Assembly (NCBI GenBank): GCA_016933365.1
Contig: JAFGBB010000032.1
Span: forward strand, 1-36,343
Source: Candidatus Wolfebacteria bacterium
Lineage (GTDB): Bacteria > Patescibacteriota > Minisyncoccia > UBA6257 > UBA9933
Reading direction: 5' to 3'
Length of the DNA: 36,343 nt
In this document: one piece after another, positions 47 through 21,339 of the stretch
Numbering within the stretch: position 1 is the stretch's first letter
Layout of the letters: the number at the start of each line of letters is the position of its first letter
Notes under the pieces: model-generated
Database searches by the model: none
What the model was told of the DNA's origin: nothing
The model's input: the letters and a program-made list of their open reading frames with translations, nothing else
Made by a program: the position numbers and the translations under genes

Positions 47-709
47 ATGAAAATAAAAGATCTTCCAAAAGTTGATAGGCCGCGAGAAAAACTGGAAAAA
101 TACGGACCCGAAAAATTATCTGACTCGGAGCTTTTGGCCATTCTTTTAAGAACTGGTAGTAAAGGCATAAATGTAGTTGAGTTGGCCAGAAAGATTTTAG
201 GTAAGTTCAGTGGAAGCGGCTTGGCCAAGGCCGGCTTTAATGATTTAAAGAATACTTTTGGCCTTGGTGCGGCTAAGGCCTGTGAGATTGTAGCTTGTTT
301 TGAATTAGGCCGCCGGCTTCTGCAAAATAAGAAAAGTCAGATTTATCTAACTCCCAAGGATGTTTGGAATGAATTAAAGGATATTCGGGACAATAAAAAG
401 GAACATTTCGTCATTTTCTTTTTAGATGCGCGTAATCAGGAAATAAAAAGAGAGATTATTTCAGTTGGCTCCCTCAATGCCAATCTGGTTCATCCACGAG
501 AAGTATTTGAGCCAGCCGTACGCCATTTGGCCGCACAAGTAATTCTGGCGCATAATCATCCAGCCGGGGACTTGAAGCCATCTGAACAGGATATCGAAAT
601 CACTAAACGGCTTGTTGAGGCCGGCGATGTTTTAGGAATAGATATTGTGGATCATATCATTGTGACTCAAAATAGATTTTTAAGTTTTAAGCAAAAGAAA
701 TTAATATAA
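47..709 (+). CDS. radC: RadC-family JAB/MPN (JAMM) domain protein, copy 1
   Basis: 220-aa ORF. N-terminal LSDSELLAILLRTG segment and C-terminal JAMM signature HNHPAGDLKPSEQD (starts nt 551) are typical of RadC/YeeS. The stop lies 5 nt before the next ATG. Confidence 0.85.
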   Translation: MKIKDLPKVDRPREKLEKYGPEKLSDSELLAILLRTGSKGINVVELARKILGKFSGSGLAKAGFNDLKNTFGLGAAKACEIVACFELGRRLLQNKKSQIYLTPKDVWNELKDIRDNKKEHFVIFFLDARNQEIKREIISVGSLNANLVHPREVFEPAVRHLAAQVILAHNHPAGDLKPSEQDIEITKRLVEAGDVLGIDIVDHIIVTQNRFLSFKQKKLI

Positions 710-714
710 TTTTT

Positions 715-2463
715 ATGTCAAAGCGATTATATAAATCAAAAAAAGAAGAAATCAAAACCCAGAAAACTGGCACTTATTTTAATGCTAAAAATTCAGATAA
801 AAAGTCCTATGAGACTTACACCAAAGAGGATTTAATTGCAGAGGTTGAGCAGTTAAAAAAGCGTAAGCAGTATGGTTTAGTTTGGGAGGAGCAGGAAGAG
901 AAATTTGACAAAGACACGATCGGCAAATTGCCTGTTTTAAGGGAAGTCAAAAACAAAGAGATTAAAAAAGATAAAGATGGGCCGGTAAATCTTCTAATTG
1001 AGGGCGACAACTATCATTCGCTTTCGGTTCTAAATTACACTCACGAAAAATCTATCGATGTTATTTATATCGATCCTCCCTATAACACAGGAGCAAAAGA
1101 TTGGAAATATAACAATCATTATGTTGATATCAATGATGCGTTTCGACATAGCAAGTGGCTATCAATGATGGAAAAGAGGCTGAAGCTCGCAAAAAACCTT
1201 TTGCGAAGTGACGGTGTTTTAATATGCACTATAGATGAAAACGAACAAGCACATTTGGGTGTTTTACTCGAAGAACTGTTCCCAGATCACGAGATACATT
1301 GCATAACAATCGTTCATAATCCAAGAGGTGTTCAGGGCGATAATTTTTCTTATATGCACGAGTATGCATATTTTGTATTTCGTAGGGGATTAAAGGTTAT
1401 TGGAAGCAAACAGCGCGACGAAGTATTGGAAGAAGAATTAAGAGATCATGGCGGCGAATCCTTAAGAACGAATGCCAAAAATTGCTTTTACCCAATTCTT
1501 GTAAAGAACGGTCGGATTATAGGTTTCGGCGATGTGCCACATAAAGATTTTCATCCTAAAACAAAAAATGTTTACCGAAAAAAAGATAAAATCATTGAAG
1601 TTTGGCCTGTTGATGTAAAAGGTATTGAGAGAAAATGGGTTTTTGCGCGAAATACCGTTGAAGAAATTAAAGATAAATTATTTGTCAGTACCAAGAAAAA
1701 TGGAGAGATCGATATTTTTAGAAGAAAAGATACCCAAAAACCCAGAACGGTTTGGATTGGTACGAGATATGATGCAAGCACCTTTGGTTCGAAAATTGTA
1801 AATGGTCTTACTGGCACTACATTCCCATTTCCTAAATCTTTATTTAACACAAAAGACTGCCTCGAATGTGTTGTGAAGCAACGCAAGAATGCGGTTGTTC
1901 TTGACTATTTTGCTGGATCTGGAACAACTGGTCACGCGGTAATGTTGCTGAACAAAGATGATGACGGACAACGACAATTTATCCTATGCACGAATAATGA
2001 AAATAATATCGCTGAAGATGTTTGTTATCCGCGGATAAAGAATGTAATCAAGGGTCATAAAGATTACCCAGATATTACTGGAATGCCCGGCAATCTTAAA
2101 TATTACAAAACAGCGTTTGTTGGCGCCACGCCGTCTGATGCAAACAAAAAGAAACTCACGGATCAATCCACTGAAATGCTTTGTATCCGCGAGAATACTT
2201 TTGAGAAAGTTTTAGAAAGAAAACATTTTAAGATTTTCAAGAATAATCAAAAACACACAGGCATTTTATACGACCAAGTAGCAATCCCTGATTTTAAAAA
2301 GGTCGCAAAAACTATCAAGGGCCCGATACACACTTACATTTTCTCATTGGAAGATGAGGATTTTTCGTCTGAGTTTGAAGATATGAATGGCCGCATTGTG
2401 GTGTCGCCAATACCCGAAGTAATTTTAAGAGTTTATCGTAGAATATTTGGCATAAAAATATGA
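715..2463 (+). CDS. mod: Type III restriction-modification methyltransferase (Mod), beta-class N6A/N4C MTase
   Basis: 582 aa. Motif IV IYIDPPYN (DPPYN at 1072-1086) precedes motif I DYFAGSGTTGHA (1909-1932), the beta-class order typical of Mod. The stop overlaps the next start (ATGA at 2460-2463). Confidence 0.8.
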   Translation: MSKRLYKSKKEEIKTQKTGTYFNAKNSDKKSYETYTKEDLIAEVEQLKKRKQYGLVWEEQEEKFDKDTIGKLPVLREVKNKEIKKDKDGPVNLLIEGDNYHSLSVLNYTHEKSIDVIYIDPPYNTGAKDWKYNNHYVDINDAFRHSKWLSMMEKRLKLAKNLLRSDGVLICTIDENEQAHLGVLLEELFPDHEIHCITIVHNPRGVQGDNFSYMHEYAYFVFRRGLKVIGSKQRDEVLEEELRDHGGESLRTNAKNCFYPILVKNGRIIGFGDVPHKDFHPKTKNVYRKKDKIIEVWPVDVKGIERKWVFARNTVEEIKDKLFVSTKKNGEIDIFRRKDTQKPRTVWIGTRYDASTFGSKIVNGLTGTTFPFPKSLFNTKDCLECVVKQRKNAVVLDYFAGSGTTGHAVMLLNKDDDGQRQFILCTNNENNIAEDVCYPRIKNVIKGHKDYPDITGMPGNLKYYKTAFVGATPSDANKKKLTDQSTEMLCIRENTFEKVLERKHFKIFKNNQKHTGILYDQVAIPDFKKVAKTIKGPIHTYIFSLEDEDFSSEFEDMNGRIVVSPIPEVILRVYRRIFGIKI

Positions 2464-4646
2464 TTATACTAAGAGATTATCAAAAAGAGGCAGTAGACGA
2501 ACTCAAAGAAAGAACAAATAAATTATTAGACAAACCAAACAATCCGATTTGTATTTTTAAGGCGCCTACTGGTTCGGGCAAGACTATAATGATGGCAGAG
2601 TTTTTGAAGGAATTTATTGAACATCGGGACGATCATCGTTCTTTTGCTTTTATTTGGGCGGCCCCCAGAAAATTACACATTCAAAGCAAAGAAAAACTGG
2701 AGCAGTATTATTCTGACAGCAAAGCACTTCGCTGTTCTTTTTTTGAAGATTTAATGGATAAGAAAATCAGCGAGAGCGAGATTTTATTTTTAAACTGGGA
2801 GAGCATTAATAAGAAAGACAATCTCATTATTCGTGAAAATGAGCAAGAGAATAATTTATCTAAAATTCTTGAAAACACTCGGGAAGACGGACAGGAAATT
2901 ATTTTAATTATTGATGAAAGTCATCATGCGGCGCAGACCGACACTTCACAAAATCTTATTCGGGACATTGACCCCAGAGTAACCATTGAAGTTTCAGCTA
3001 CTCCTCATTTGAGTAGTGATTATAGAGTATTGGTTGAATTTTCTGATGTTAAGCGAGAGGGGATGATTAAAAAAGAGGTAGCAATAAACCCAGAATTTCA
3101 AAACATTAAAGTTAGTGGTAAAAGTGCCGATGAAGTTGTGCTGGATGCCGCCATCGGTAAAAGAAAAGAATTAGTCAAAGCATATAAAGATGAAGGTTCA
3201 GAAATTAATCCCTTGGTCCTTATTCAATTGCCGGATAAAAGAGTCGGTTCTTCGGATAAGAAAGATGAGATTATCGCTTTACTCAAAAAGAAAGGCATTG
3301 CGGTCAATAATGGCAAACTGGCAATTTATCTGTCAGAGGATAAGGAAAATTTGGCCAATATTGCTAAAAGCAACAATGACGCAGAAGTAATGATTTTTAA
3401 ACAAGCGATTGCACTTGGCTGGGATTGTCCTCGGGCCTCCATTTTAGTTTTATTCCGTGATTGGCGAAGTATCATTTTTTCAATTCAAACCATCGGCAGA
3501 ATCATGAGGATGCCGGAATTAAAGCATTACGAGGATCATCAAGAATTGAATCTTGGTTATGTTTATACCAACTTAAGTGATATTAGCATCCATGAAGATT
3601 TGGCCAAAGATTACATCACGATATTTGAGTCTAAGCGCCGGCCGGATTATAAGCCGATAAACTTGGCTTCTTGTCACTCAAAGCGTTTTCGTGAAGAAAC
3701 CCGTTTGGCATCATTTTTTATTCCTATTTTTCTCGATGCCGCCAAAGAATTGCGTTTAAAAGACAAAATTAATTTTAAGGTAAAAACAAGTGTCAGCGAG
3801 CTTATCGCCGAGGGTAAAATAGAAGAATTAGACCATGTTGTCGAGCACATAGAAAAAGCTGGCACGATAGCGATTGACCAGACGGCACTTGAACGACAAA
3901 ACGCTTTCAGTTCATTCATTGCCGAGGCACTCTCGCCCTTATATCCCGAGCCTCGTTCTGTGGGCCGGATTAGAGATTCTATTTACCGCTTCTTTTTAGC
4001 GGCTTTCAAGATGAATTACGAAGACGAGCAGGAGAAAATAATGAACATTGTTTTAAATAAACAAAACAGAGAATTTTTTAGAAATGTAATTGATCGGGCT
4101 AAAGAGTTATATCTTGAGAAAGTTGGCCGGGGTAAAAAGGAATTAATCACTGATGAAGAATGGGATATTCCGATAAGACTTAATTATAATAGTTTTTTTG
4201 AAGAGAAGAAATACAAAAACTCAATCATGCAACCTTTCTTCTACGATACCCGGGAGAGTCGGCGCTGGAAGACGGAAGAAGATTTTATTAAACATCTTGA
4301 AAAAGCTGGCGGCATTGATTGGTGGTTCAAAAATGGAGATCGCGATGCTACCTATTTTGCCGTGTCCTATACCGAAGCTGGCATAGATATGCCCTTCTAT
4401 GTTGACTTCATTGTGAAAATGAAAGACGGCCGGATTGGCTTGTTTGATACTAAGTCGGGCATCACCGCTAAAGTCGCCGGGCCTAAGGCCGAGGGCTTAG
4501 CTAAATACATCAAAGAGCAGAATAGGAAGGGTAGGAAACTATTTGGCGGTATTGCGACTCAAAAAGACAGCAATTGGCTTTATAATGACAGCGAGAAATA
4601 CGATGAAACCGATCCAAAACAATGGCAAATTTTGGATTTAGATTAA
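2460..4646 (+). CDS. res: Type III restriction enzyme Res subunit (SF2 helicase plus C-terminal PD-(D/E)xK)
   Basis: 728 aa. Helicase motif I KAPTGSGKT (2559-2585), motif II IIDESHH (2913-2924) and motif VI-like QTIGRIMR. C-terminal FYVDFIVK...GLFDTKSG reads as a D...DxK nuclease motif. Translationally coupled to mod. Confidence 0.75.
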   Translation: MIILRDYQKEAVDELKERTNKLLDKPNNPICIFKAPTGSGKTIMMAEFLKEFIEHRDDHRSFAFIWAAPRKLHIQSKEKLEQYYSDSKALRCSFFEDLMDKKISESEILFLNWESINKKDNLIIRENEQENNLSKILENTREDGQEIILIIDESHHAAQTDTSQNLIRDIDPRVTIEVSATPHLSSDYRVLVEFSDVKREGMIKKEVAINPEFQNIKVSGKSADEVVLDAAIGKRKELVKAYKDEGSEINPLVLIQLPDKRVGSSDKKDEIIALLKKKGIAVNNGKLAIYLSEDKENLANIAKSNNDAEVMIFKQAIALGWDCPRASILVLFRDWRSIIFSIQTIGRIMRMPELKHYEDHQELNLGYVYTNLSDISIHEDLAKDYITIFESKRRPDYKPINLASCHSKRFREETRLASFFIPIFLDAAKELRLKDKINFKVKTSVSELIAEGKIEELDHVVEHIEKAGTIAIDQTALERQNAFSSFIAEALSPLYPEPRSVGRIRDSIYRFFLAAFKMNYEDEQEKIMNIVLNKQNREFFRNVIDRAKELYLEKVGRGKKELITDEEWDIPIRLNYNSFFEEKKYKNSIMQPFFYDTRESRRWKTEEDFIKHLEKAGGIDWWFKNGDRDATYFAVSYTEAGIDMPFYVDFIVKMKDGRIGLFDTKSGITAKVAGPKAEGLAKYIKEQNRKGRKLFGGIATQKDSNWLYNDSEKYDETDPKQWQILDLD

Positions 4647-4656
4647 ATAAATTTTC

Positions 4657-7600
4657 ATGACGAAATCTAAAAATAATAGAGTAAACGAATTGGTCGAAAT
4701 CAACTTCGACCAATTTAGGATAAAGAACCCAAATTTCAGAGAGTCTTTTGAACAACTTTGTTATTATTTATTTTGTAGAAGGTTCAAGATAACAAAAGGA
4801 ATACTCCGTCATAAAAATCAGATTGGCATAGAAACAGAACCAGTTAAGGTTGATAAGCAATATATTGGATTCGAGTGTAAATTTTTTGAGAATAAGATTG
4901 ATACGAATGAATTAGTTAAAAAAATCAAAAAAGCAAAAGAGAAAAACCCCAAAATTACTAAGATTATCTTCTATCTAAATCAAGATTTTTTATCAGAAAG
5001 CCAAAAGAAGGGGCAGAAAAAATCAACTAAAATGTTAGAGATCGAAAAGGTAGCGAGCGAACAGAAAGTTGAGATTGAATGGGTTGTAAAAAGTCATTTC
5101 GAAATTTTACTTAACCAACCGTCAAACCTAGATTTGGCGGAGTTGTTTTTTGATGTCGGCGATGAGTTGGGTTTTATTAAAAACTATGCAAATCCAGATA
5201 TTCTTACTTTCCTTCAGTCAAAAGAATATATTAATTTGCCACTTCTTCATCAGGGGAAATCCTTAAGGTTTCCATCAGCCAGCATCTTAAAAAGTTTAAA
5301 GACAACTTTTTTAATTACGGGATGCCCGGGCTCTGGAAAGACTATCTTGATGCACAAATTGTTTCAAGAATTTGGCGGGCTAAACAAAAATAAAAATGAA
5401 CAGATGATTCGGGTTCTTCAAAAAAATTCAGCCGTGCCAATGTTGGTGAATTTAAAGAATTGTATCAGTGATAGTTTAGAAAATATTTTAAGAAATAGAC
5501 AAAACGATAGCAGGGTAAGAGGGCGAACACTAGGCTTTGTTTATATTTTTGACGGTTTAGACGAATTAAGCGAAGAGAAGGCCGATAATATGCTTGCATA
5601 TATGCGAGAACTTGAACAGCAGGATAATACAAAGAGGATTATTATTTCGTGCCGATCTGGCAACTTAAACAGGATTAAATTAAAAGTCTATCTGCCAAAT
5701 ATTATTGAATATGCAATAGCTGATCTCGAGATAAAACATATTAATCAGTATTTTGATGCAAAGGAAAATACATTAAAAAAGAAATTGCTATTAAGGCTCC
5801 AGAAAAATAACCAAGAACTTTTAAGTGAAATAAAAGATATACTTATGACGCGGTTGCTTTGGGATACCATAGTCAACTTGGATTCGCAAAGTGGCATTAT
5901 AGATTTACTGGAGAAGAAAATAGAGCTTTTATTGAATGATCCAAATCATAAGAAAAATATCGCAGAGTTGAACCTATTGAATCCTAAGGGTGAAAATTTA
6001 ATCACATTAAATCAAGATATTGCCTTTGAATTTCAGAAAAAATTCCAATTCAGATACTCGCAGAAGGAATTATACAACATTATTTTGGCTAAATTTCCAC
6101 GCCTTGATTATAGATCGGCGAATGAGCTTTTAAACTATCTTGCCGATCTATTTTTTGAATCTGAGTATACCCCAACCGAACGAAATCGCAGTTTCGTTTA
6201 TCAACATCGCAGATATCAAGAATTTTTCTTTGTTCAGAAATTAAAATCAAAGTATGAAAACAATCCAAAATCTCTGAGAGAATTAAATGTTTTATCGAAT
6301 CGAGATTTTCTTGAGAAATTATTTTTACGATATATGCGTAAACAATATGGGTTAGCGAGAAATTTAATTGGGATGATTGAAATGAATTTAATAGATGTAT
6401 ATTTAGGAAAACATAGCGGATACGGAGTGGATGACGCTTATTATTTAAACTCCGCTGCATTTATACCCTCGCTTGCAAGCCAAGAGAACCAATTATTCAT
6501 CCAGTTATTTGAGGATAATAATCTGGCGCTATCAGAAAAGATTAAAGTTGATTTAAAAGTAGTCAGAGATTATTTTGCGAAGTGGAAAAAAGATAAAGAT
6601 AATTTTAGAACTACCAATTATTTAAAAAGCATTTGGGAAAATGGTATAGCCTCTTTACTAACTAATGCCGCAGTCTTTTGGAGGGCCGGGAAGAAAAATT
6701 TGGCCATCCACCTTCTTAATGATATGAGCTCTTTGCAAAAGTTATATTCCAATAATAAGTTTCGCAAAGGTCTTCGCAAAGAGGATCATTTAAGAGATCC
6801 TTTTTGGGAAAGATGGGAAGATTATTTATATATTCTTATAGTTATCGATAACAAGACTCCAAAGAAAATTTTGGATAATCTTGTTAGGAAAAATTACAAA
6901 ATATTTTCAAGTGATCGCCCCTTCTCGTCTCAAGAAGAAGGTAAAGAAAAGTTGTTAAAATCGTTCTTCAGAGTTTGTCTGCGTGATAAAGCGAACGCTT
7001 TATTTAGGCTTATCGATACTTTTGACGAATTTGAATTCTCATCTTTTTTAGATGTTTTACTATCTATTGAATTCTTGCCGGCATTCATCAAGAATAAATC
7101 AATACACAAAAAAATTGCTTCCTTTTTACAGGATTTACATTCAGATTTAAATGAGAAAAACTATTTTATGACTTTTTATAAAAATTATTTTGGCATCAAA
7201 TTATCTAAAAAAGAAAGAAAATATTTAGAAACCGAACTTTCAAAATTAAGAAATGAAAGGAAGGTCGATTGGCATTTTCATCAAGCACCATTCAAATTTG
7301 CTATCATTTCTTATGTTTTAGCCAAAAACACTTTTGATGAATTGTTAAAGGATGCATCTGAGAACTCACCGTTTCGATATTATGACGAGTTAGCTTTATA
7401 TTCGGCTTTGTTCGCAGATTTTATAAGCTTGCTTTCTGAGAAAAAGAATATTGAGACAATAACAAGGGACTATCTTGCTTATGTAAATATTCATGATCAA
7501 CGATTGGGATTATATTTAAAAGTAGATATTTCTTTTTTGTGGGCCTATATTTTAACATATAGCAAAACAACTAATGATCGATTAAGAAATATCAAAAATC

Positions 7601-8928
7601 GCCTTATGATTACCGATAATAATATTGTTCCTTTTAGTTTTTGTTTAAAATTAAATCAATTAAATCCGTTGTTGCTTTGTTCTCTGTATAATGAAAATGA
7701 GATATCAGAATTTGAGAGTGTGCTGAAAGACATCGATGATTATTATGAATACATTAATGATTGTTTTTATCTATCCTCGTTTTTTTCTAAATTAAACAAG
7801 GAAAAGGCACGATTTTATTTCGTAAAGGGTATAAATGATGGCATATTGCGGCATGGCTACAGAAAAGATGTTATTGTGAGTTATTTACTCGTTGATGCTT
7901 TAGAGATCCTGTGGCGTAATAATTGGGAATCAAAAGAAAAACTCAAAGAATACACAAAGGCGGTATTTAATTTAGCGATGCGTGTAACTAAAATTAGCGA
8001 CGGGGCGGAAACATGGAGGGGCCCCTATAATGTGATTGATTTGATCGCAAAATACGATATTACCTTGGCGGAAGAATACAAAAAAGAACTAATTGCCGCA
8101 AAGGGTCATTCAAATTTCTCGAATTCGGTTATAACCTCTATCTTAATCGGGAAAGCCGAGAATGGTTTTCCGATCGAGGACATTGAAAGTGGAATGCAAA
8201 AGTATAGAAAAGATTACGATTACGAAAATAAGCCGTATACTGATACATACGAGCAAAAATTCAAAGTCTATTTGGGAATAGCTAAAAGTGGTTTATATAC
8301 CGAACAGCAAAAAAAAGAGGCATTTCAAAAAGCCTTCGATCAGGTTGAAGAAATGAAGAAAGCCGGAGTTACTTATTATCTGAGAGATATGGATTTTAAA
8401 GAGGAAAAAAATGACTTTAAAAAACTATGTAAGCAATACAATAAAACTTGCAATGTCTCTTTTGATGAGAAAAAAGAAGAATATCATATAAAAAGCAAAA
8501 TGTCAGAAAAAGATTTTATTAACAATGTGAGGAAAGCGAAAACAAAGCCAGCGATAAGGGGGTTATACGCCAGATTAAAAAATTATAAAAATGGGATTGA
8601 ATTAAAAAAACAAGAATCTTGGAAAATATTGATTAAAAAAACAGCCGAAATCACTGGTAATATAAAATTATTTGTAGATTTAATTCGGGATAATAGTTTC
8701 CCGCATACTGATTTTATGACACAAAATTCTAAGCATTTCCATTTTGGAGTTGCGGCCGCACTTGAAGATATTGGCATTAAAAACGAAATTCTTAATTATC
8801 TTTTTAAGAATACGGGGCATGGCGGTTTTATCAATATAATGAAGTCCTATGAAGTTAATGAAGATAAGGAAATGTGCAGAAAGTTATTCAGGAGATATCT
8901 TTTGTTTTGCGATTTATTGGTTAACTAA
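4657..8928 (+). CDS. STAND/NACHT-type P-loop NTPase with N-terminal Mrr-like PD-(D/E)xK domain and a long helical C-terminal region (Avs/bNACHT-like)
   Basis: 1423 aa. N-terminal FEQLCYYLF...QIGIETEP...IGFECKFF (E59/E61, E73-x-K75) resembles Mrr-cat nucleases. Walker A ITGCPGSGKT (5320-5343). Walker B/NACHT-like FVYIFDGLDEL (D299, D302, E303). More than 1000 aa of helical sequence follow with no motif I recognise. Starts 10 nt after the res stop. Confidence 0.7.
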   Translation: MTKSKNNRVNELVEINFDQFRIKNPNFRESFEQLCYYLFCRRFKITKGILRHKNQIGIETEPVKVDKQYIGFECKFFENKIDTNELVKKIKKAKEKNPKITKIIFYLNQDFLSESQKKGQKKSTKMLEIEKVASEQKVEIEWVVKSHFEILLNQPSNLDLAELFFDVGDELGFIKNYANPDILTFLQSKEYINLPLLHQGKSLRFPSASILKSLKTTFLITGCPGSGKTILMHKLFQEFGGLNKNKNEQMIRVLQKNSAVPMLVNLKNCISDSLENILRNRQNDSRVRGRTLGFVYIFDGLDELSEEKADNMLAYMRELEQQDNTKRIIISCRSGNLNRIKLKVYLPNIIEYAIADLEIKHINQYFDAKENTLKKKLLLRLQKNNQELLSEIKDILMTRLLWDTIVNLDSQSGIIDLLEKKIELLLNDPNHKKNIAELNLLNPKGENLITLNQDIAFEFQKKFQFRYSQKELYNIILAKFPRLDYRSANELLNYLADLFFESEYTPTERNRSFVYQHRRYQEFFFVQKLKSKYENNPKSLRELNVLSNRDFLEKLFLRYMRKQYGLARNLIGMIEMNLIDVYLGKHSGYGVDDAYYLNSAAFIPSLASQENQLFIQLFEDNNLALSEKIKVDLKVVRDYFAKWKKDKDNFRTTNYLKSIWENGIASLLTNAAVFWRAGKKNLAIHLLNDMSSLQKLYSNNKFRKGLRKEDHLRDPFWERWEDYLYILIVIDNKTPKKILDNLVRKNYKIFSSDRPFSSQEEGKEKLLKSFFRVCLRDKANALFRLIDTFDEFEFSSFLDVLLSIEFLPAFIKNKSIHKKIASFLQDLHSDLNEKNYFMTFYKNYFGIKLSKKERKYLETELSKLRNERKVDWHFHQAPFKFAIISYVLAKNTFDELLKDASENSPFRYYDELALYSALFADFISLLSEKKNIETITRDYLAYVNIHDQRLGLYLKVDISFLWAYILTYSKTTNDRLRNIKNRLMITDNNIVPFSFCLKLNQLNPLLLCSLYNENEISEFESVLKDIDDYYEYINDCFYLSSFFSKLNKEKARFYFVKGINDGILRHGYRKDVIVSYLLVDALEILWRNNWESKEKLKEYTKAVFNLAMRVTKISDGAETWRGPYNVIDLIAKYDITLAEEYKKELIAAKGHSNFSNSVITSILIGKAENGFPIEDIESGMQKYRKDYDYENKPYTDTYEQKFKVYLGIAKSGLYTEQQKKEAFQKAFDQVEEMKKAGVTYYLRDMDFKEEKNDFKKLCKQYNKTCNVSFDEKKEEYHIKSKMSEKDFINNVRKAKTKPAIRGLYARLKNYKNGIELKKQESWKILIKKTAEITGNIKLFVDLIRDNSFPHTDFMTQNSKHFHFGVAAALEDIGIKNEILNYLFKNTGHGGFINIMKSYEVNEDKEMCRKLFRRYLLFCDLLVN

Positions 8929-8976
8929 TAGGATATCTCTCACTAAATGGGCGAATTTGGGGGTAGAATAGAGTGA

Positions 8977-9072
8977 TTACGGCCGGAGGGCGTATTCGCG
9001 GCGGGTGGCTTTAATCAGGTTCATTTTCTCTTTAAGCGAGGCAATATACATCCAATCTTCTAAGGTTTGCAT
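8977..9072 (-). pseudogene. 31-codon GC-rich ORF remnant (MQTLEDWMYIASLKEKMNLIKATRREYALRP)
   Basis: Small minus-strand ORF in the GC-rich patch gccacccgccgcgaatacgccctccggccg. No promoter or SD visible. Probably a fragment of a decayed gene. Confidence 0.2.
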
Positions 9073-9095
9073 AAAACTTGGGCTCGGGAGCTAAT

Positions 9096-9124
9096 AAAAA
9101 AAACCAACAAAAGTTGGTTTTTTT
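9096..9124. terminator. A/T-flanked hairpin, bidirectional intrinsic-terminator-like
   Basis: aaaaaaaaccaac-aaaa-gttggttttttt: 12-13 bp stem, 4-nt loop, A-tract on one side and T-tract on the other. Confidence 0.55.
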
Positions 9125-9489
9125 ATAAGGTATATACAAAAAAACAGAAAATTTTTCTGTTTTGCCTGTCCGCCGTATTGAAGGATGTTTCTCTTATTCA
9201 GAAAAAAGCGGAAACGCTTTATTTAAATTCGCAAAAGGGCAAAAAGGAAGGGGGTTGGGGGATGCCCCGAAGGAGTTACTCCGCGATCTTACGGGGTAAA
9301 AAATTTTTTGCCTGCCTGCTCTGCCTGCCGAAGGTGCGACTGGGTTGGTCGGACGGGAGATGGCTATAAGTACGACTACTGTTTTGTATTGAATAACCTT
9401 TTACCATCTGTTGAAAAATGTTATTATTTACACGAACCAAGAAACGAAAGGTTAAGCGATCACTCCGCTATTATTTTAAATTTAAATTT

Positions 9490-10050
9490 ATGAATATTGA
9501 AGTAGAAATAAAAATTGAGATAAATAATTTTGAGGATATTAAAACAAAAGTGGTTGCTATAGGAAAGTTGATAAAATCAATAAGACAAATTGATGATTAT
9601 TTTATCCCCAGCCACAGGGATTTTTTTGCTCAAAAACCATGTCCAACAGAATGGTTACGCATAAGAACTAATCCTGATAAAGTAATTTTTGAATATGATA
9701 AGGCTGTAAATATGACAACGAACGGTGATTACGACTATGCGGAGGAATATGAAACAGTAATTTTTGACGCAGATGAACTCAGAAAAATATTAAACTTTTT
9801 AGATTTTAAAAAAGTGGTGACAATTGATAAGCAAAGGGAATATTGGGACTGCGGATACGTAGAAGTCGCGCTAGATAAAATTAAAGGATTAGGTACTTTT
9901 ATTGAGGTAGAAGCAAAAGGAAATTTTAAGGACGCCACACAAGCCAAACATGCCTGCTTTAAATTTTTAAAAGAATTAGGAATTGAAAACGCCGAAAACA
10001 AGGAAATTAAAAAAGGCTACCCCGTTTTATTTTTAGAAAAAAATAATTAA
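9490..10050 (+). CDS. CYTH-domain protein (class IV adenylate cyclase / triphosphatase family)
   Basis: N-terminal MNIEVEIK (the ExExK CYTH signature), WLRIR, and VALDKIKGLGTFIEVEA near the C-terminus. I prefer the ATG at 9490 over the track start at 9418, whose 24-aa basic extension looks spurious. Confidence 0.7.
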   Translation: MNIEVEIKIEINNFEDIKTKVVAIGKLIKSIRQIDDYFIPSHRDFFAQKPCPTEWLRIRTNPDKVIFEYDKAVNMTTNGDYDYAEEYETVIFDADELRKILNFLDFKKVVTIDKQREYWDCGYVEVALDKIKGLGTFIEVEAKGNFKDATQAKHACFKFLKELGIENAENKEIKKGYPVLFLEKNN

Positions 10051-10426: not shown

Positions 10427-10798
10427 ATGAAAAAAATTAAGAAAAATAATAAAAATTTAACAATAAGAGAAATTCAAGATTGGGAAAAATCTTTTTTGGA
10501 AAAAAAGGGTGTTTTTGAAGACAAAGATAAAGAAAAAGCAATTAAAACTGCTATTTGTAAATTAGCAGAAGAAACAGGAGAAGTTGCTGAAGCGATATTA
10601 GAAGATAAATGGGATAAAATACAAGAAGAAGTTACCGATGTAATAGTTTTTGCTTGTAAGGTAGCTAACATAGCCGAAAAATTTTACGGTGCCGAGGATC
10701 TTTCTGACGCTATAAGAAAAAAGATAAAAATATGCGACGAAAGAGAATGGAACCCTGATAATAAAAAGCTTAATAAAACAAAAAATGAGAGAGCGTAG
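10427..10798 (+). CDS. MazG-like nucleoside triphosphate pyrophosphohydrolase
   Basis: 123 aa. The helical pair KLAEETGEVAEAILE ... QEEVTDVIVFACKVA matches the EExGE / EExxD metal-binding pattern of all-alpha NTP-PPases. Confidence 0.6.
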   Translation: MKKIKKNNKNLTIREIQDWEKSFLEKKGVFEDKDKEKAIKTAICKLAEETGEVAEAILEDKWDKIQEEVTDVIVFACKVANIAEKFYGAEDLSDAIRKKIKICDEREWNPDNKKLNKTKNERA

Positions 10799-12998: not shown

Positions 12999-14003
12999 GT
13001 GAATATGGATTTAACATTAATTCAAAAATTATTTGAAAAAGAACCGAAATATCGTTTTAAACAAATTAAAAAAGCGATTTTTCAAGATTTAATTCAAGAT
13101 TGGCAAGAGGCGGCGGCTTTGCCACTATCTTTAAGAAATAAATTAAATAAAGAATTTTCAATTAAAATATTTGCCAAAGCGTTTGTTTCTAAAGATAAAA
13201 AAACAATAAAAGCGATTATTGTTTTAAAAGATGGTTTTAAAATTGAAACTGTTTTAATGCGTCATAAAGATAAAAGAAATACTGTTTGTGTTTCTTCGCA
13301 AGTTGGTTGTCCGTTAAAATGTCTTTTTTGCGTTACGGGAAAAATGGGATTTAAAAGAAATCTTGATGCTTGGGAAATCATTGAACAGGTTTTGTTTTTT
13401 GCCCGTTATTTAAAAAAAGATAAAGAAAAAATTACCAATATTGTTTTTATGGGAATGGGAGAGCCTTTTTTAAATTATCAAAATGTAATTAAGGCAATAA
13501 AAATTTTAAACGATAAAGAAGGTTTTAGTTTGGGGGCAAGACATTTTTCAATTTCCACTGTTGGAATTATTGAAGGGATTGAAAATCTTATTAAAGAAAA
13601 ATTGCAAATTAATTTGGCTATTTCTCTTCACGCGCCCAATGACGAACTTCGTTTAAAATTAATGCCAATTAATGAAAAATATCCTCTTAAAAAAATTTTA
13701 AACGCGACTGAAAATTATGTTAAAAGAGTCGGGCGACGAGTAATGTTTGAGTATATAATGATAAAAGATTTAAATGATTTTGAAGAACACGCCAAACAAT
13801 TAGCAAAAATGATTAAAAAACCTCTTTATTTTGTTAATTTAATTCCTTGCAACCCAAATGGAATTTTTAAACCTTCATCTTCTTTAAAAATTAAAAAATT
13901 TAAAGAAATTTTGGAAAAACAAGGAATAAATGTTACTCAAAGATATAATTTTGGCAAAGATATTCAAGGCGCTTGCGGTCAATTAGTTGTTAAAGAATCT
14001 TAG
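12999..14003 (+). CDS. rlmN: 23S rRNA/tRNA adenine-C2 methyltransferase RlmN (radical SAM)
   Basis: CVSSQVGCPLKCLFCVTG radical-SAM CxxxCxxC, NIVFMGMGEPFLNY, ISTVG and LAISLHAPNDELR are all RlmN/Cfr hallmarks. The start is either GTG 12999 or ATG 13005. Confidence 0.88.
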   Translation: MNMDLTLIQKLFEKEPKYRFKQIKKAIFQDLIQDWQEAAALPLSLRNKLNKEFSIKIFAKAFVSKDKKTIKAIIVLKDGFKIETVLMRHKDKRNTVCVSSQVGCPLKCLFCVTGKMGFKRNLDAWEIIEQVLFFARYLKKDKEKITNIVFMGMGEPFLNYQNVIKAIKILNDKEGFSLGARHFSISTVGIIEGIENLIKEKLQINLAISLHAPNDELRLKLMPINEKYPLKKILNATENYVKRVGRRVMFEYIMIKDLNDFEEHAKQLAKMIKKPLYFVNLIPCNPNGIFKPSSSLKIKKFKEILEKQGINVTQRYNFGKDIQGACGQLVVKES

Positions 14004-14076
14004 TTTTATTTATATATTATGGTAAAAAAGGAGTATTTTTAGTATAATTAAAAAGTTGAAAATCAATATTTAAAAA

Positions 14077-15348
14077 ATGATTAAAAAAAATTTATTAATT
14101 ATTTTAATAATTATTTTATTTTTGGCTACGGCCGTTGCCGTGGGATTATTTATTTTTCCTTATCAGCCGGATAAACCGCCCCATGCGGAAGATGTTGGTT
14201 CAACTGTTCAAGGTATATCAGAGGTGGTTGACGCGAATAATAAATTCGCTTTTGATTTATATTCCGAGTTAAACAATTCCGAAAAAGGAAACATTTTTTA
14301 TTCTCCTTATAGTATTTTTTCCGCATTAGCAATGACTTATGAAGGAGCTAAAAATCAAACAGCCAGTGAAATGAAATCTGTTTTTCATTTTCCGGAAAAT
14401 GAAATTTTGCGTCCAAATTTTGCCAAAATTTATAATGATATAAATGAAAACGCTAATGATTACGATTTAAAAATCGGAAACGCTTTGTGGGCTCAACAAA
14501 ATTTTTATTTTCTTGAAGATTATATGGATAGAGTTGAAAAATATTACGGTGGAAAAGCGGTGAATGTGGATTTTGCAAACAAAACAGAAGAAACAAGGCA
14601 AACCATTAATAGTTTTATTGAAGAACAAACAAAAAATAAAATTAAAAATTTAATTCCCAAGGGAGCCCTTGATTTAACAACCAGACTTGTTTTAACTAAC
14701 GCGGTTTATTTTAAAGGGGATTGGGAATGGCAATTTGACATAAAAGAAACCTTTGAAAGCGATTTTAAGATAACTCCTGATAATATTATTAAAACCGAGA
14801 TGATGAATATGAAGCCCGGTATTGATGAAGCAAAATTTAATTATCTTGATAATGGAGATTTACAAGTTTTAGAATTGCCGTATAAAGGGGATAAAATTTC
14901 AATGTTAATATTATTGCCAACTGAAAATCTTGATGTTGTAGAATCTAATCTTACTTTTGAAAAAATAAATGAATATAAGTCTCAAATGAAAGAAACAAAA
15001 TTAGATTTAATTTCTCTTCCTAAATTTGAATTTGAAACTAAATATTTTATGAAAGAGACTTTAAGTAATTTAGGAATGTCTTCAGCTTTTTCTTTTCAAG
15101 ACGCTGATTTTTCCGGAATGACCGGAAAGAAAGATTTATTTATAGGATTTGTTATTCATCAGGCATATATAAAAGTTGACGAAAAAGGAACAGAAGCGGC
15201 GGCGGCAACCGCGGTAGGAATGAATCTTACGTCTATGCCTAATTTTAGAACTGTTTTTAAAGCTGACCATCCGTTTCTTTTTATGATTCAAGAAAAACAA
15301 ACGGGAAATATTCTATTTTTGGGCAAAGTGGTTAATCCGAACGAATAA
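14077..15348 (+). CDS. Serpin-family protease inhibitor with N-terminal membrane anchor
   Basis: 423 aa. NAVYFKGDWEWQF, the inhibitory-type hinge EKGTEAAAATAVGM, and the C-terminal FKADHPFLFMIQE...GNILFLGKVVNP serpin signature. N-terminal TM LLIILIIILFLATAVAVGLFIF. Confidence 0.85.
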   Translation: MIKKNLLIILIIILFLATAVAVGLFIFPYQPDKPPHAEDVGSTVQGISEVVDANNKFAFDLYSELNNSEKGNIFYSPYSIFSALAMTYEGAKNQTASEMKSVFHFPENEILRPNFAKIYNDINENANDYDLKIGNALWAQQNFYFLEDYMDRVEKYYGGKAVNVDFANKTEETRQTINSFIEEQTKNKIKNLIPKGALDLTTRLVLTNAVYFKGDWEWQFDIKETFESDFKITPDNIIKTEMMNMKPGIDEAKFNYLDNGDLQVLELPYKGDKISMLILLPTENLDVVESNLTFEKINEYKSQMKETKLDLISLPKFEFETKYFMKETLSNLGMSSAFSFQDADFSGMTGKKDLFIGFVIHQAYIKVDEKGTEAAAATAVGMNLTSMPNFRTVFKADHPFLFMIQEKQTGNILFLGKVVNPNE

Positions 15349-15374
15349 TTTTAATTTTTTAAGATTATTTACTC

Positions 15375-15404
15375 TTGACAAAATACCCTATGGGGGTATA
15401 TGCT
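15375..15404 (+). promoter_or_regulatory. Sigma70-type promoter overlapped by a CsoR/CstR-type operator
   Basis: TTGACA at 15375-15380. The palindrome ATACCC-tatgg-GGGTAT (15383-15399) fills the spacer. A -10-like TATATG/TATGCT lies around 15397-15404. The site resembles the known GC-tract CsoR-family operators (ATACCCnnnGGGGTAT type). Confidence 0.6.
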
Positions 15405-15427
15405 TTTATTATTAAATAATTAATAAT

Positions 15428-15676
15428 ATGAGAAAAAATACAATAACTCAAAGATTAAATATTGTTAAAGGACAAATAGACGGTTTAATTAATCTTATAG
15501 AAAAACAAGAAGATTGTCGCAAGGTAACGGAACAATTTTACGCGATAAACGCTGGTTTAAAAAAAGCGATTGAAAAATACTTTAAAGATAATTTATCTTC
15601 TTGTTTAAAATCTATTAATCTTAAAAAAAGAAAAACGGTCGAATTTTTTTTAAAAGAATTAGTTGAAAATAAATAA
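15428..15676 (+). CDS. CsoR/RcnR/FrmR-family metal- or persulfide-sensing repressor (C-N-C type, CstR-like)
   Basis: 82 aa, RLNIVKGQIDGL...EDCRKV...SSCLKS. Cys30 and Cys59 have the CsoR spacing, but the position of the Cu-ligand His (4 residues before Cys59) is Asn55. Confidence 0.8.
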   Translation: MRKNTITQRLNIVKGQIDGLINLIEKQEDCRKVTEQFYAINAGLKKAIEKYFKDNLSSCLKSINLKKRKTVEFFLKELVENK

Positions 15677-15681
15677 TATTT

Positions 15682-16008
15682 ATGTCTAATTTAATTTTAA
15701 CTGATGAAAATTTTTCAGAAAAAGTTTTAAAAAGCCAAAAGCCGATTTTGGTTGATTTTTGGGCGGAGTGGTGTATGCCCTGCCAAATGATAGCCCCAAT
15801 TCTTCAAGAAATCGCCGAAAAATTCAATGAAAAAATAATAATTGGCAAACTTGATGTTGATAAAAATCCTTCAATCTCCAATATGTTTTCAATAGATGCT
15901 ATTCCGGCTTTGTTTTTATTTAAAGACGGAAAAATAATACAAAAGTTTATAGGCGTTCAACCTAAACAAGTTATTGAGAAAGCTATTGAGGTCGCAATTG
16001 AAGATTAA
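15682..16008 (+). CDS. trxA: Thioredoxin
   Basis: 108 aa. VDFWAEWCMPCQMIAP active site (WCxPC) and a cis-Pro region IPALFLFKDG. Confidence 0.88.
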   Translation: MSNLILTDENFSEKVLKSQKPILVDFWAEWCMPCQMIAPILQEIAEKFNEKIIIGKLDVDKNPSISNMFSIDAIPALFLFKDGKIIQKFIGVQPKQVIEKAIEVAIED

Positions 16009-16017
16009 ATTAACTCT

Positions 16018-16821
16018 ATGAATAAAGAAATTACTAAAATTACAATTTTGCCGGGAATAAATAAGCTTGGAGAAAAGGAAAATTTTAAAAAAATTGACAT
16101 AAAAAAAGGAGAAGTTGTTGCTATTGTAGGTCATACAGGCGCTGGTAAAAGTCAGCTTCTTTATGATATTGAAAGACTTGCTCAAAAAGACACTAAAAGC
16201 AAAAGAAAAATCTTGGTAAATGATGAAATTCCTGATAAAGAATTAAGATTTAATCCTAAAAGAAAATTAATCGCTTCTTTGGCGCAAAGTATGAATTTTT
16301 TTACGGATATGGCTGTTGGAGATTTTCTTAAATTGCATTTAGAATCTCGTGGAAAAAAATCAAAAAAAGGATTAATTGAAGAAGTGATTAAAGAAGCGAA
16401 TAAAATCACCGGCGAAGCAATTTCTTCTAAAATGAATTTACTTAATTTATCCGGAGGGCAAAGCAGAGCTTTAATGGTTTCCGATGTGGCTAATATCAGT
16501 GTTTCTCCTATTGTTTTAATTGACGAAATAGAAAACGCGGGAATTAAAAAAGAAGAAGCGATTAAAATTTTAGTGGAAGAAGGAAAAATTATTTTAATTG
16601 TTACTCACGACCCTTCTTTAGCGTTAAATACCGATAAAAGAATTATTATTAAAAATGGAGGTATTGTTGATGTTTTAAATACTTCTTTAAAAGAAAAAGG
16701 TATCGCGCATTATCTTAATTGGATAGAAAGCTTTGGTTTGGATATAAGAGAAAAAATAAGAAAGGGCAAAAAGATTGAAAATGTTGAAATATATTGCGAA
16801 CCAATTAAATCTAAAAAATAA
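16018..16821 (+). CDS. Soluble ABC-type ATPase with no adjacent permease
   Basis: Walker A GHTGAGKS, signature LSGGQ, Walker B VLIDEIE, H-loop VTHD. No TM partner gene is adjacent. Confidence 0.7.
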   Translation: MNKEITKITILPGINKLGEKENFKKIDIKKGEVVAIVGHTGAGKSQLLYDIERLAQKDTKSKRKILVNDEIPDKELRFNPKRKLIASLAQSMNFFTDMAVGDFLKLHLESRGKKSKKGLIEEVIKEANKITGEAISSKMNLLNLSGGQSRALMVSDVANISVSPIVLIDEIENAGIKKEEAIKILVEEGKIILIVTHDPSLALNTDKRIIIKNGGIVDVLNTSLKEKGIAHYLNWIESFGLDIREKIRKGKKIENVEIYCEPIKSKK

Positions 16822-16825
16822 AAAT

Positions 16826-17620
16826 ATGAAATTTATAATTTTTGCGGGAACTCCCGGTTCAGGTAAAACAAGCATAATTAAAAGTATAATTCAAGAATTG
16901 AAAAATGATTTCAAATTATTTTTTGCAAAGTTTGATTGTTTGCAAACATTAGACGATGAAAAAATTGCTAAAGAATATAAAATTCCAGCCGTAAAAAAGC
17001 TTGCCGGAGAACTTTGTCCTGACCATTATACCGCTTTGGAAATACCAAAAATAATTAAAGAAAATAAAGATAAAGATATTATTATTTTAGAAACCGCGGG
17101 TTTGTGTCTTCGTTGTTCTCCTTATGTTGAAGAAGGATTAGGAATTAATGTTTTAGATATTACTTCAGGAGACCCTTCTCGTTACGGACCAATTTTAACA
17201 GAAGCGGATGTGGTAGCTATTAGCAAGGGAGATTTAATTTCTCAAGCGGAAAGAGAAATTTTTAGAGCAAAGGTTTTAAAGGTTAATCCTAAAGCAAAAA
17301 TAACAGAAGTAAACGGTCTTACGGGAGAAGGAGCTTTTGATATAGCGGAATTTATAAAAGAATCTTTAGCTGTAAAAAGTGAAAAATTAACATTAAAACA
17401 TTCTATGCCTTCGGCAATTTGCGGATATTGTTATGGAAATAGAATAATTGATGAAACAGAATCGCGAAAGAGATTTTTAGCTGGAAAAGAATTAAAAAGT
17501 TTGGTTCCTAATTTAAATTGTGGAAAATGCGGTTATAAATCTTGCAATGAATTTATAAGAGCAGTTTTAGATGGGAAGGCCCAAAAAGAAAAATGTCCTT
17601 TTATTAAAAAAGAAATTTAA
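16826..17620 (+). CDS. G3E-like P-loop NTPase (HypB/UreG/CobW-like) fused to a C-terminal RnfB-type 4Fe-4S domain
   Basis: MKFIIFAGTPGSGKTS Walker A, ILETAGLCLRCSPY (switch plus CxxC), AISKGD (NKxD-like). C-terminal CGKCGYKSCNEF...EKCPF shows a Cx2Cx4Cx16C pattern. I prefer ATG 16826, 4 nt after the upstream stop, over the track start at 16775. Confidence 0.55.
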   Translation: MKFIIFAGTPGSGKTSIIKSIIQELKNDFKLFFAKFDCLQTLDDEKIAKEYKIPAVKKLAGELCPDHYTALEIPKIIKENKDKDIIILETAGLCLRCSPYVEEGLGINVLDITSGDPSRYGPILTEADVVAISKGDLISQAEREIFRAKVLKVNPKAKITEVNGLTGEGAFDIAEFIKESLAVKSEKLTLKHSMPSAICGYCYGNRIIDETESRKRFLAGKELKSLVPNLNCGKCGYKSCNEFIRAVLDGKAQKEKCPFIKKEI

Positions 17621-17644
17621 ATTAATTTTTAAGATACATTTTTA

Positions 17645-17920
17645 ATGTTAAAAAAAGAAAAAGAGTTTAAGAGATTATTTAAAGAATCCGAAGATTTTGC
17701 GAAAAAAAACGGATTTCGTTTAAATCCCGATAAAAAAGCGGTCAATTATTTAATTGAAGCGTTGTTTGAAAAAGAAAATAAATACGGTAAAAAATATTGT
17801 CCTTGTCGTCGTCTTAAAGAAAATCAAAAAGAAAATAATAAAATTGTTTGTCCGTGCGTTTATTGTAAAGAAGAAATAAAAAAAGACGGACATTGTCATT
17901 GTTTTTTATTTGTAAAATAA
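17645..17920 (+). CDS. Ferredoxin:thioredoxin reductase catalytic-subunit-like protein (single subunit)
   Basis: 91 aa with CPCRR...CPCVYC...GHCHCFLF, the CPC/CPC/CHC cysteine pattern of FTR catalytic chains. Confidence 0.68.
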   Translation: MLKKEKEFKRLFKESEDFAKKNGFRLNPDKKAVNYLIEALFEKENKYGKKYCPCRRLKENQKENNKIVCPCVYCKEEIKKDGHCHCFLFVK

Positions 17921-17929
17921 TTTAATAAT

Positions 17930-18109
17930 ATGAGTAAATTTAAAATTGATAAATCAAAATGCGTTGGATGTGGAGCTTGTGTTAACACTTGTCTTTATGA
18001 AGCGATTGAAATTGGAAAAGATGATAAAGCAATTATAAATAAAGAAAAATGTAAAAATTGCGGTAAATGTAAAAAAATTTGTCCTTTTAACGCAATATTA
18101 GAAAAATAA
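17930..18109 (+). CDS. 2x[4Fe-4S] ferredoxin (59 aa, absent from the ORF track)
   Basis: MSKFKIDKSKCVGCGACVNTC...KEKCKNCGKCKKICP contains two CxxCxxCxxxC(P) motifs. Paralog of the ORF at 21893-22087. Confidence 0.75.
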   Translation: MSKFKIDKSKCVGCGACVNTCLYEAIEIGKDDKAIINKEKCKNCGKCKKICPFNAILEK

Positions 18110-18168
18110 TTTTTAGTTTTTTTAATGGTTTTATTTACGAATTTATTTGTAGTTTTTTTATATAATTT

Positions 18169-19823: not shown

Positions 19824-19850
19824 ATTTTTAATTATTTATTTTTTAAAATA

Positions 19851-20405: not shown

Positions 20406-20419
20406 TTTATAAAGTTTAT

Positions 20420-21058: not shown

Positions 21059-21168
21059 ATTTTGTTTATTATACTGGAAACAATAAATTTAATTAATAGC
21101 TTTTATAAATAATCTTTTTAAATTATAATAAACTAAAGGTCTAAAATTATATTAAAATAAATAAAAAT

Positions 21169-21339
21169 ATGAAAAATCATGGCGGAGGGTCGGCTGTTTA
21201 CGGTTTAGGAATTATTGGCGCGGCTGTTTATTTTATTGGTAATGCCGCAACTTTTTGGCTTGGAGTAATTGGATTTTTAAAGGCTTTAGTTTGGCCCGCG
21301 TTTCTTATTTATTACGCGTTTGAATTTTTACTTAAATAA
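21169..21339 (+). CDS. Small (56 aa) two-helix membrane protein, absent from the ORF track
   Basis: ATG at 21169. MKNHGGGSAVYGLGIIGAAVYFIGNAATFWLGVIGFLKALVWPAFLIYYAFEFLLK, stop at 21337-21339. Gly-rich TM helices and an A-rich upstream region. Confidence 0.4.
   Translation: MKNHGGGSAVYGLGIIGAAVYFIGNAATFWLGVIGFLKALVWPAFLIYYAFEFLLK

Follow-up and report, generated by a model that had tools for sequence, protein, structure and literature searches.

The open reading frame (ORF) at positions 4657 to 8928 of contig JAFGBB010000032.1 from a Candidatus Wolfebacteria bacterium (GenBank assembly GCA_016933365.1) probably codes for an antiviral STAND protein made of one polypeptide and belonging to the NACHT clade, that is, a bacterial protein resembling the receptors with nucleotide-binding and leucine-rich repeat domains (NLRs). 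We estimate at roughly 75% the probability of this reading, under which the protein cleaves DNA following trigger-induced oligomerisation. The ORF was studied within a stretch of 36,343 nucleotides (positions 1 to 36,343 of the forward strand), referred to as the window. Its product combined a predicted Mrr-type nuclease, homologous to the effector of Avs4, with a NACHT NTPase and an all-alpha C-terminal region that is the putative sensor. An earlier reading of the DNA letters by a model (the original prediction) had proposed a single-protein phage sensor with a nuclease output, and the nuclease homology, the NACHT module and the defence context reported here support this proposal.

The ORF encodes a conserved protein made of three modules

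At least 120 full-length homologs, approximately 1360-1480 amino acids (aa) long and with 39-57% identity, were recovered from 5.8 billion clustered proteins. Scanning 185,579 species-representative genomes extended the full-length set to relatives with as little as approximately 25% identity. Conservation was calculated on 71 homologs, down to 25% identity. The features of the ORF are listed below by window coordinates.

4657-8928, + strand: nuclease–NACHT–alpha-solenoid sensor ORF, complete, ATG start, 1423 aa
4693-5094, + strand: Mrr-type PD-(D/E)xK nuclease domain, aa 13-146, by homology to the EcAvs4 effector
4831-4881, + strand: residues predicted to be catalytic, E59 and E73-x-K75, opposite EcAvs4 E49, Q63 and K65
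5095-5286, + strand: conserved linker, aa 147-210, consensus LxQPSNLDLAQLYFGxGDExGFIKNS...TFLQSxEYLxLP, still aligned to Avs4 by hhalign
5287-6516, + strand: NACHT NTPase module, aa ~211-620, with nucleotide-binding domain, helical domain 1, winged helix and helical domain 2
5320-5343, + strand: Walker A, G222-CPGSG-K228-T, with G222, G227 and K228 invariant
5545-5565, + strand: Walker B with the NACHT signature, I-F-D299-G-L-D-E303, D-G-L-D-E invariant
6199-6228, + strand: winged-helix motif, Y515-Q-H517-R-R-Y-Q521-E-F-F524, with H517 and F524 invariant
6517-8925, + strand: family-specific all-alpha solenoid, putative sensor, aa 621-1423 (AlphaFold2 (AF2) model), aa ~640-1000 most variable
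7849-7869, + strand: most conserved sensor motif, R1065-H-G-Y-R-K1070-D1071, with R1065 and D1071 invariant and K1070 in 97% of homologs

All the motifs previously quoted for this 1423-aa ORF were present, namely G57-I-E59-T-E61-P62, I70-G-F-E73-C-K75-F-F, G222-C-P-G-S-G-K228-T and I-F-D299-G-L-D-E303-L. Residues R41, E59, P62, K75, G222, G227, K228 and the D299-G-L-D-E303 signature were identical in 71 of 71 sequences, as were R333, H517, R541, R1065 and D1071. Judged from this alignment, conservation of the motifs is far above what chance would be expected to produce. Inspection of 15 of the most distant family members indicated that all of them begin with the same nuclease domain and retain D[GAS]hDE; the architecture of the family is therefore fixed, and no swapping of the effector was seen among these 15 proteins.

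Two distant members (P0245, 1367 aa; P0253, 1368 aa) carried a C-terminal extension of approximately 150 aa past the end of the sensor (...EEWA[VI][KR][HY][PS]D...VDGGRA[LT][IL]P[MI]P...), which was conserved between both proteins and absent from the other family members. At five homolog loci (L019, L028, L042, L049 and L055), an early stop codon was found in the frame set by the start of the tblastn match, despite this match covering nearly the whole protein. Possible reasons are frameshifts or pseudogenisation of these copies, errors in the assemblies, or an offset of the frame in the simple extension.

The N-terminus is homologous to the EcAvs4 nuclease

The N-terminal region had been read as an Mrr-cat or PD-(D/E)xK nuclease core, and the profile and sequence comparisons pointed to Avs4, whose Escherichia coli member (EcAvs4) has an experimentally solved nuclease domain. 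A phmmer search against the PDB gave EcAvs4 as the sole match (8DGF chain A, residues 2-141, E=9.5e-22), 8DGF being the EcAvs4-Mrr-portal complex; the family profile stretched this match to 8DGF residues 1-248 (E=2.6e-36). In agreement with this result, hhalign of the family profile with full-length Avs4 paired aa 12-234 with Avs4 residues 1-248 at approximately 34% identity (probability 99.8%). The PADLOC Avs4 model matched aa 13-239 (E=4e-50) over positions 2-232 of 1570 only, and the NCBIfam Avs4 equivalog NF041815 matched aa 16-239 (E=2e-51) over positions 1-229 of 1579, with 174.4 bits versus a cut-off of 1500. The data support the assignment of this module as a predicted nuclease of the Mrr/PD-(D/E)xK type.

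Alignment placed E59, E73 and K75 opposite EcAvs4 E49, Q63 and K65. The catalytic set first suggested, E59/E61 and E73-x-K75, was borne out in part: E59 and K75 are invariant, but E61 is variable in the family (EcAvs4 has N at the equivalent position) and position 73 is usually Q. Glutamine was found at position 73 in 97% of the homologs as well as in EcAvs4, making the glutamate of the ORF an exception, and the conserved signature is therefore given as E59...(Q/E)73-x-K75. Glutamate is the canonical residue at this position in PD-(D/E)xK enzymes.

The NTPase is a NACHT module closest to animal NLRs

The P-loop NTPase had been described as NACHT-like, an assignment that held in each analysis. 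The Pfam NACHT family (PF05729) matched aa 217-366 with 30.5 bits versus a gathering score of 26.7 (E=3.9e-7), and D-G-L-D-E conforms to the D[GAS]hDE form of Walker B, by which Kibby et al. tell NACHT apart from other STAND proteins. Foldseek was run on separate models of the NTPase and the sensor. The AF2 model of aa 170-620 (pLDDT 85.9) had autoinhibited NLRC4 as its best match in the PDB (4KXF, E=2e-10, TMq ~0.6), followed by NLRP3, NAIP and NLRP9 and then by ORC/Cdc6; the NLRC4 and NLRP3 matches spanned E=2e-10 to 1e-7. No Avs structure was present among the 50 matches listed for this model.

The Y515-F524 motif lies directly after a beta-strand of the winged-helix region in the AF2 model, and Q521 was invariant among the 45 closer homologs. 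We take this motif to resemble the ADP-contacting histidine motif of NLRs ('hxHxxhQEF'). By signature, Pfam threshold and predicted structure, the NTPase is a true NACHT module.

The C-terminal solenoid is confined to a single architecture

The C-terminal region was originally described as an unrecognisable sensor of approximately 1000 aa with no repeat periodicity. No known repeat family or solved sensor was indeed recognised, but since the NACHT module reaches approximately aa 620, the sensor measures about 800 aa, and it was confidently modelled as an all-alpha solenoid with conserved polar motifs. The AF2 model of aa 561-1423 (pLDDT 89.5, pTM 0.79) was entirely alpha-helical, with approximately 48 helices forming an irregular solenoid. 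Pfam, NCBIfam and PADLOC gave no match in aa 620-1423, and Foldseek of the model against the PDB gave no match at E<=0.001. The best PDB matches were generic HEAT solenoids (CRM1, importin-beta and SF3B1; E>=3e-3, TM ~0.18), and no Avs or NLR sensor, 8DGF included, was among the 50 matches listed. A Foldseek search of BFVD returned nothing meaningful (best E=0.05).

To the sensor-only profile, 174 proteins responded among 1.84 billion representative proteins. Matches close to full length were all found in proteins of 1220-1490 aa, with the sensor at the same C-terminal place, and the remainder were fragments. Among these 1.84 billion representatives, the sensor sequence is confined to the nuclease-NACHT-solenoid architecture.

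Conservation was lowest at aa 640-1000 (0.35-0.42, versus 0.58 for NACHT) and climbed again around aa 1040-1130 and 1320-1423, where the invariant polar motifs are found. Besides R1065-H-G-Y-R-K1070-D1071, conserved motifs of the sensor include D1115-G-x-x-T-x-x-G-P1123 and G1387-H-G-G-F. The conserved C-terminal patches may dock within the molecule onto the NACHT module, which is just as conserved, or may form a pocket that binds a conserved ligand; aa 640-1000, the variable segment, is more likely than these patches to be the surface engaged in an arms race.

Homologs are rare, patchily distributed and found near defence and mobile-element genes

Approximately 50 loci were found among the 185,579 species representatives. 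Full-length homologs in the candidate phyla radiation (CPR) belonged to Saccharibacteria, Kaiserbacteria, Magasanikbacteria, Gracilibacteria, Peribacteria and Paceibacterota. Other hosts were Bacteroidota, Bacilli, Clostridia, Acidobacteriota, Gammaproteobacteria, Kapaibacteria, Ignavibacteria, Oligoflexia and one Methanomassiliicoccales metagenome-assembled genome (MAG). The closest homologs of the ORF came from CPR and Kapaibacteria MAGs. A rare gene with such a patchy spread across phyla is what would be anticipated if a defence gene moved by horizontal transfer.

The homologs of Neobacillus novalis and Priestia megaterium sit within a small island that carries an integrase, RepA_N, a gene in which prohead protease and capsid are fused, and a tail-tube-like gene; a second integrase marks the boundary of the island. 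An IMG/VR contig carries the homolog after genes for an integrase, a helicase, a portal, a major head and a major tail protein. The element coordinates for Neobacillus, Priestia and this one IMG/VR contig are 7226-9267 (L001), 1740-9325 (L003) and 147-8272 (L074). We infer that these are capsid-forming satellite-like elements or defective prophages carrying the homolog as cargo. In Lacibacter, the homolog adjoins HEPN_Apea and HigB/helix-turn-helix (HTH) genes, with integrases close by, and another locus contained RelB/YafQ and two recombinases.

No partner gene was conserved among the 147 ORFs lying nearest to 43 homologs. Families recurring in this set were Type I, II and III restriction-modification (R-M), McrBC, AbiEi, HEPN_LA2681, mad2, PDC-S02, nSTAND3, recombinases and phage capsid, protease and tail genes. 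By these family counts, made without a matched background, and by the loci described above, homologs do occur near defence and mobile-element genes (R-M, McrBC, AbiEi, HEPN, toxin-antitoxin, integrases). Three outcomes had been set beforehand as counting against the original prediction (an N-terminus with no nuclease fold, an NTPase grouping with non-defence AAA/STAND families, and homologs not enriched near defence genes), and none of them was observed.

Proposed mechanism and alternative explanations

The ORF product has the tripartite organisation, effector, STAND NTPase and sensor of at least 400 aa, that characterises Avs proteins in the broad sense (Lee et al. 2026), and its effector is of a defence type, an Mrr nuclease common with Avs4. 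In Avs3, Avs4 and Avs7, Cap4 or Mrr nucleases are switched on by tetramerisation (10.64898/2026.08.25.746987). We therefore propose a mechanism in which the closed-to-open switch, the activation of the nuclease by oligomerisation, the abortive outcome and the nature of the trigger are modelled on Avs4, Avs3, Avs7 and NLRs. At rest, the protein would be a closed, ADP-bound monomer, its nuclease being off because it is monomeric. During infection, the alpha-solenoid (aa ~621-1423) would engage a trigger, most likely a conserved phage protein, and this binding would free the NACHT module for nucleotide-dependent oligomerisation. Oligomerisation would bring the Avs4-type Mrr domains at the N-termini together, forming active nuclease dimers or tetramers, and the assembled nucleases would cut double-stranded DNA indiscriminately, so that the infection is aborted.

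Several points weigh against this interpretation. The copy in the window departs from its family at position 73, where it carries the canonical E instead of Q. PADLOC has no full-length model for the family, its Avs4 model covering the N-terminus only. The antiviral role of the family is suggested by sequence, predicted structure and context; several homolog neighbourhoods are plainly housekeeping, and the defence context, resting on family counts with no matched background, is supportive and not quantitative. Finally, the conserved polar motifs of the sensor (R1065...K1070-D1071 and D1115-G..T..G-P) are unusual for a fast-evolving protein-recognition surface; they could reflect a different kind of ligand, or merely an intramolecular docking surface.

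The last of these points bears on how the trigger is perceived. A protein with the same architecture and output might sense infection indirectly, as a guard, with the solenoid keeping watch over a host factor or over a disturbance that infection brings about. Lee et al. cite as precedents bNACHT25 with DnaJ, and Avs7 with its incorporated EF-Tu. The conserved polar patches persist from CPR to Bacillota and an archaeon, a pattern more in keeping with a conserved ligand, cellular or small-molecule, than with phage surfaces that evolve fast. Some homologs also ride on satellite-like elements that encode a portal and a capsid, and a direct sensor of such proteins would therefore risk self-activation. 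However, most characterised Avs families bind phage proteins directly via helical sensors, aa 640-1000 is variable as would be anticipated for an arms-race surface, and very strong conservation would be required of a host factor common to CPR, Firmicutes and archaea. We consider indirect sensing unlikely on balance.

A related proposal, to which we give equally little weight, is that the solenoid with its invariant polar motifs senses a kind of trigger that has so far been linked to none of the Avs or bNACHT families, either a non-protein ligand (nucleotide or nucleic acid) or a universally conserved host factor. Such a trigger would explain why one fixed, non-swapping architecture works in hosts as diverse as CPR, Firmicutes, Bacteroidota and an archaeon, and how the gene can be carried by satellite-like elements encoding their own portal and capsid.

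The possibility that the ORF encodes a divergent Avs4 member, recognising the phage portal protein like EcAvs4, is largely refuted and now very improbable. The only named matches of the protein were Avs4 models and 8DGF, and tblastn of aa 1-240 against plasmids returned avs4 genes annotated by the Prokaryotic Genome Annotation Pipeline (PGAP). The NCBIfam score, however, was far below the equivalog cut-off and came from the first 229 model positions only. Beyond Walker A, hmmsearch and hhalign detected nothing, and BLASTP of the sequence past the P-loop had a best E of 1.5. The full-length Avs4 used for comparison (PGAP-annotated, 1587 aa, plasmid NZ_CP141737.1) has VVDSAEK as its Walker B and no D[GAS]hDE anywhere, whereas D[GAS]hDE is invariant in the family described here. 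The predicted structures agree with this distinction, the NTPase model being nearest to NLRC4/NLRP3 and the sensor model lacking 8DGF among its 50 listed matches. Since homology stops at the P-loop and the Avs4 Walker B differs, the protein is best described as an Avs4-type effector and linker placed on a NACHT-clade switch, and not as Avs4.

Equally improbable is that the protein belongs functionally to the neighbouring Type III R-M operon as its third component, for instance a back-up nuclease linked to Mod and Res. The two R-M genes are context, outside the system:

715-2463, + strand: Type III R-M Mod
2460-4646, + strand: Type III R-M Res

RadC, Type III Mod, Type III Res and the nuclease-NACHT gene follow each other on the same strand. 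The ORF starts 10 nt past the end of Res, and a terminator scan reported no terminator-like site in the intervening sequence. Among the nearest neighbours of homologs, 2 ORFs matched Type III methyltransferase (MTase) models and 2 matched ResIII. The adjacency is nevertheless not kept in homolog loci: most homologs have no R-M neighbour and no partner gene is conserved. In addition, all characterised relatives of this tripartite effector-NTPase-sensor type are self-sufficient.

The least probable reading of all, a STAND protein with no defence role (a regulator, for instance, or an NTPase of housekeeping type), would fit the interspersion of defence and non-defence STAND clades and the housekeeping neighbourhoods of some homologs, but is contradicted by a nuclease with conserved catalytic residues common with a proven defence effector, by the lack of a DNA-binding HTH output domain in the Pfam scan, and by a patchy distribution linked to horizontal transfer with carriage on satellites, islands and viral contigs.

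Other genes and sites in the window

The non-coding segment that follows the ORF (8929-9417, approximately 490 nt) contained several hairpins, including an AT-rich one at ~9140-9165. Candidate termination sites in this segment were:

9097-9125, + strand: AT-rich hairpin and T-run, possible terminator ~170 nt past the stop codon, read from the sequence and not reported by the consensus scan
9205-9220 and 9276-9299: terminator-like sites reported by the consensus scan

Rfam and tRNA scans of the window gave no match. A 100-aa ORF with a TTG start (9067-9369) had no family match and is probably spurious.

Downstream of the nuclease-NACHT gene lie a CYTH/class IV adenylate-cyclase-like gene (CyaB-like; TIGR00318, E=9e-22; 9418-10050) and, after it, a small MazG-like pyrophosphohydrolase gene (10427-10798). 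Both act on nucleotides and could be related to defence; neither is among the recurrent neighbour families of the homologs. Functional coupling of the nuclease-NACHT gene to Type III R-M, or to these downstream CYTH and MazG genes, was rejected because neither neighbourhood is conserved.

Two RadC (JAB-domain) paralogs, at 47-709 and 29703-30365, were 80% identical over 220 aa. Each stands at the 5' edge of a separate defence-type gene cluster on the + strand. The second RadC is followed by an NYN-like gene, a Type I-like MTase with HSDR_N_2 (31866-33938), an NYN/HEC-09-like gene (33940-34545) and a PDC-M36A-like gene (34738-36222). RadC may be a marker of a recurrent insertion hotspot or a component of the cassette. 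Between both clusters, the region 12999-29206 is housekeeping in character, with radical SAM, serpin, thioredoxin, SUF, cation diffusion facilitator (CDF) transporter, VanY and two M14 peptidase genes, a prolyl-tRNA synthetase (ProRS) with a ProRS-C_1 C-terminal domain and a Gmad2/Germane gene; GC content is ~26-36%. Taken with the CPR and Kapaibacteria origin of the closest homologs, these features suggest an uncultivated bacterium with a small genome, possibly one of the Patescibacteria.

Significance

If its defence function is confirmed, the family would add one more sensor to the catalogue of bacterial pattern-recognition receptors. It is also a clear natural case of effector shuffling between STAND clades, which bears on the evolutionary assembly of bacterial and animal NLR-like proteins. 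The presence of the family in small-genome CPR bacteria and in Bacillaceae satellite-like elements offers a possible way into the immunity of lineages with few characterised defences. Current annotation mislabels or misses these proteins: the N-terminus alone matches the Avs4 model, and database entries are named 'NACHT domain-containing' or 'hypothetical'. A dedicated hidden Markov model would improve defence annotation.

Comparison with known systems

The original prediction placed the protein as 'Avs/bNACHT-like'. This stands in so far as it is a NACHT-clade protein with an Avs4-type effector, but membership of Avs4 itself was rejected, the NCBIfam equivalog cut-off being missed by far and homology to the NTPase and sensor of 8DGF not being found. 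With Avs4 (EcAvs4, 8DGF) the family has in common the N-terminal Mrr-type nuclease, the linker and the P-loop, as well as the effector-STAND-helical sensor layout and the size class. It differs in everything after Walker A, where similarity is undetectable by hmmsearch, hhalign and BLASTP, and its solenoid is unrelated to the portal-binding tetratricopeptide repeat sensor of 8DGF.

The likeness to animal NLRs (NLRC4, NLRP3 and NAIP) concerns the NACHT module only. They are its best structural matches (E=2e-10, TMq 0.5-0.6), with Walker A, Walker B and the winged-helix histidine motif in common. Sequence identity is 13-15%, the effector is CARD or PYD in NLRs versus a nuclease here, and the sensor is made of leucine-rich repeats versus an alpha-solenoid.

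Like the bNACHT proteins of Kibby et al., the ORF product passes the Pfam NACHT threshold and carries D[GAS]hDE. In the accessible part of their Table S1, Mrr_cat+NACHT and REase+NACHT proteins belong to bNACHT clade 2, and three of them (WP_157567192.1, PKN68616.1 and WP_125728006.1) share the placement of the nuclease (aa ~15-135) and of NACHT (from ~215-240). The clade 2 entries in that part of the table have no annotated C-terminal domain, whereas the ORF family has a solenoid of approximately 800 aa. Six accessions of the family (WP_066083879, WP_108674370, WP_098927350, WP_144884962, WP_221780319 and PIZ96144) were absent from the same part of Table S1 and from the searchable literature full texts and the searchable supplement of Lee et al. 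None of the tested bNACHT proteins, as far as they are described in the accessible texts, was identified as a family member.

The concept is shared with Avs7-24 (Lee et al. 2026), including NACHT-clade Avs10/bNACHT64, which have a family-specific helical sensor, a swappable Mrr or Cap4 nuclease and activation by core phage proteins; many Avs families swap effectors, whereas the ORF family does not. Lee et al. 2026 sort STAND proteins into 589 clades, with at least 90 families of Avs, and group the sensors into 684 structural clusters; they give triggers for Avs7, Avs8 and Avs10-21, mostly for Enterobacteriaceae representatives. Family motifs (ISCRSGN, FDGLDELS, LLWDT, HGWRKD and QHRRYQ among them) had no true match in the 656 seed NTPase sequences of Table S1 of Lee et al., and the Kibby clade 2 Mrr_cat+NACHT accessions are absent from that table. 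The family is present in NCBI nr as 'NACHT domain-containing protein' and was therefore probably swept into the datasets of Lee et al. and Kibby et al.

The suggestion of an undescribed clade thus needs to be narrowed: no family accession or motif was found in the searchable texts and tables, but the Mrr_cat+NACHT layout is already catalogued in the accessible part of the bNACHT clade 2 listing. Collectively, these comparisons indicate that the layout is known (Mrr_cat+NACHT, bNACHT clade 2) and that the family itself is a new, uncharacterised member. What sets it apart is its nature as a cross-clade chimera of an Avs4 nuclease and NACHT, its architecture-exclusive sensor with no structural neighbour, and its carriage by CPR bacteria and Bacillaceae satellite-like elements.

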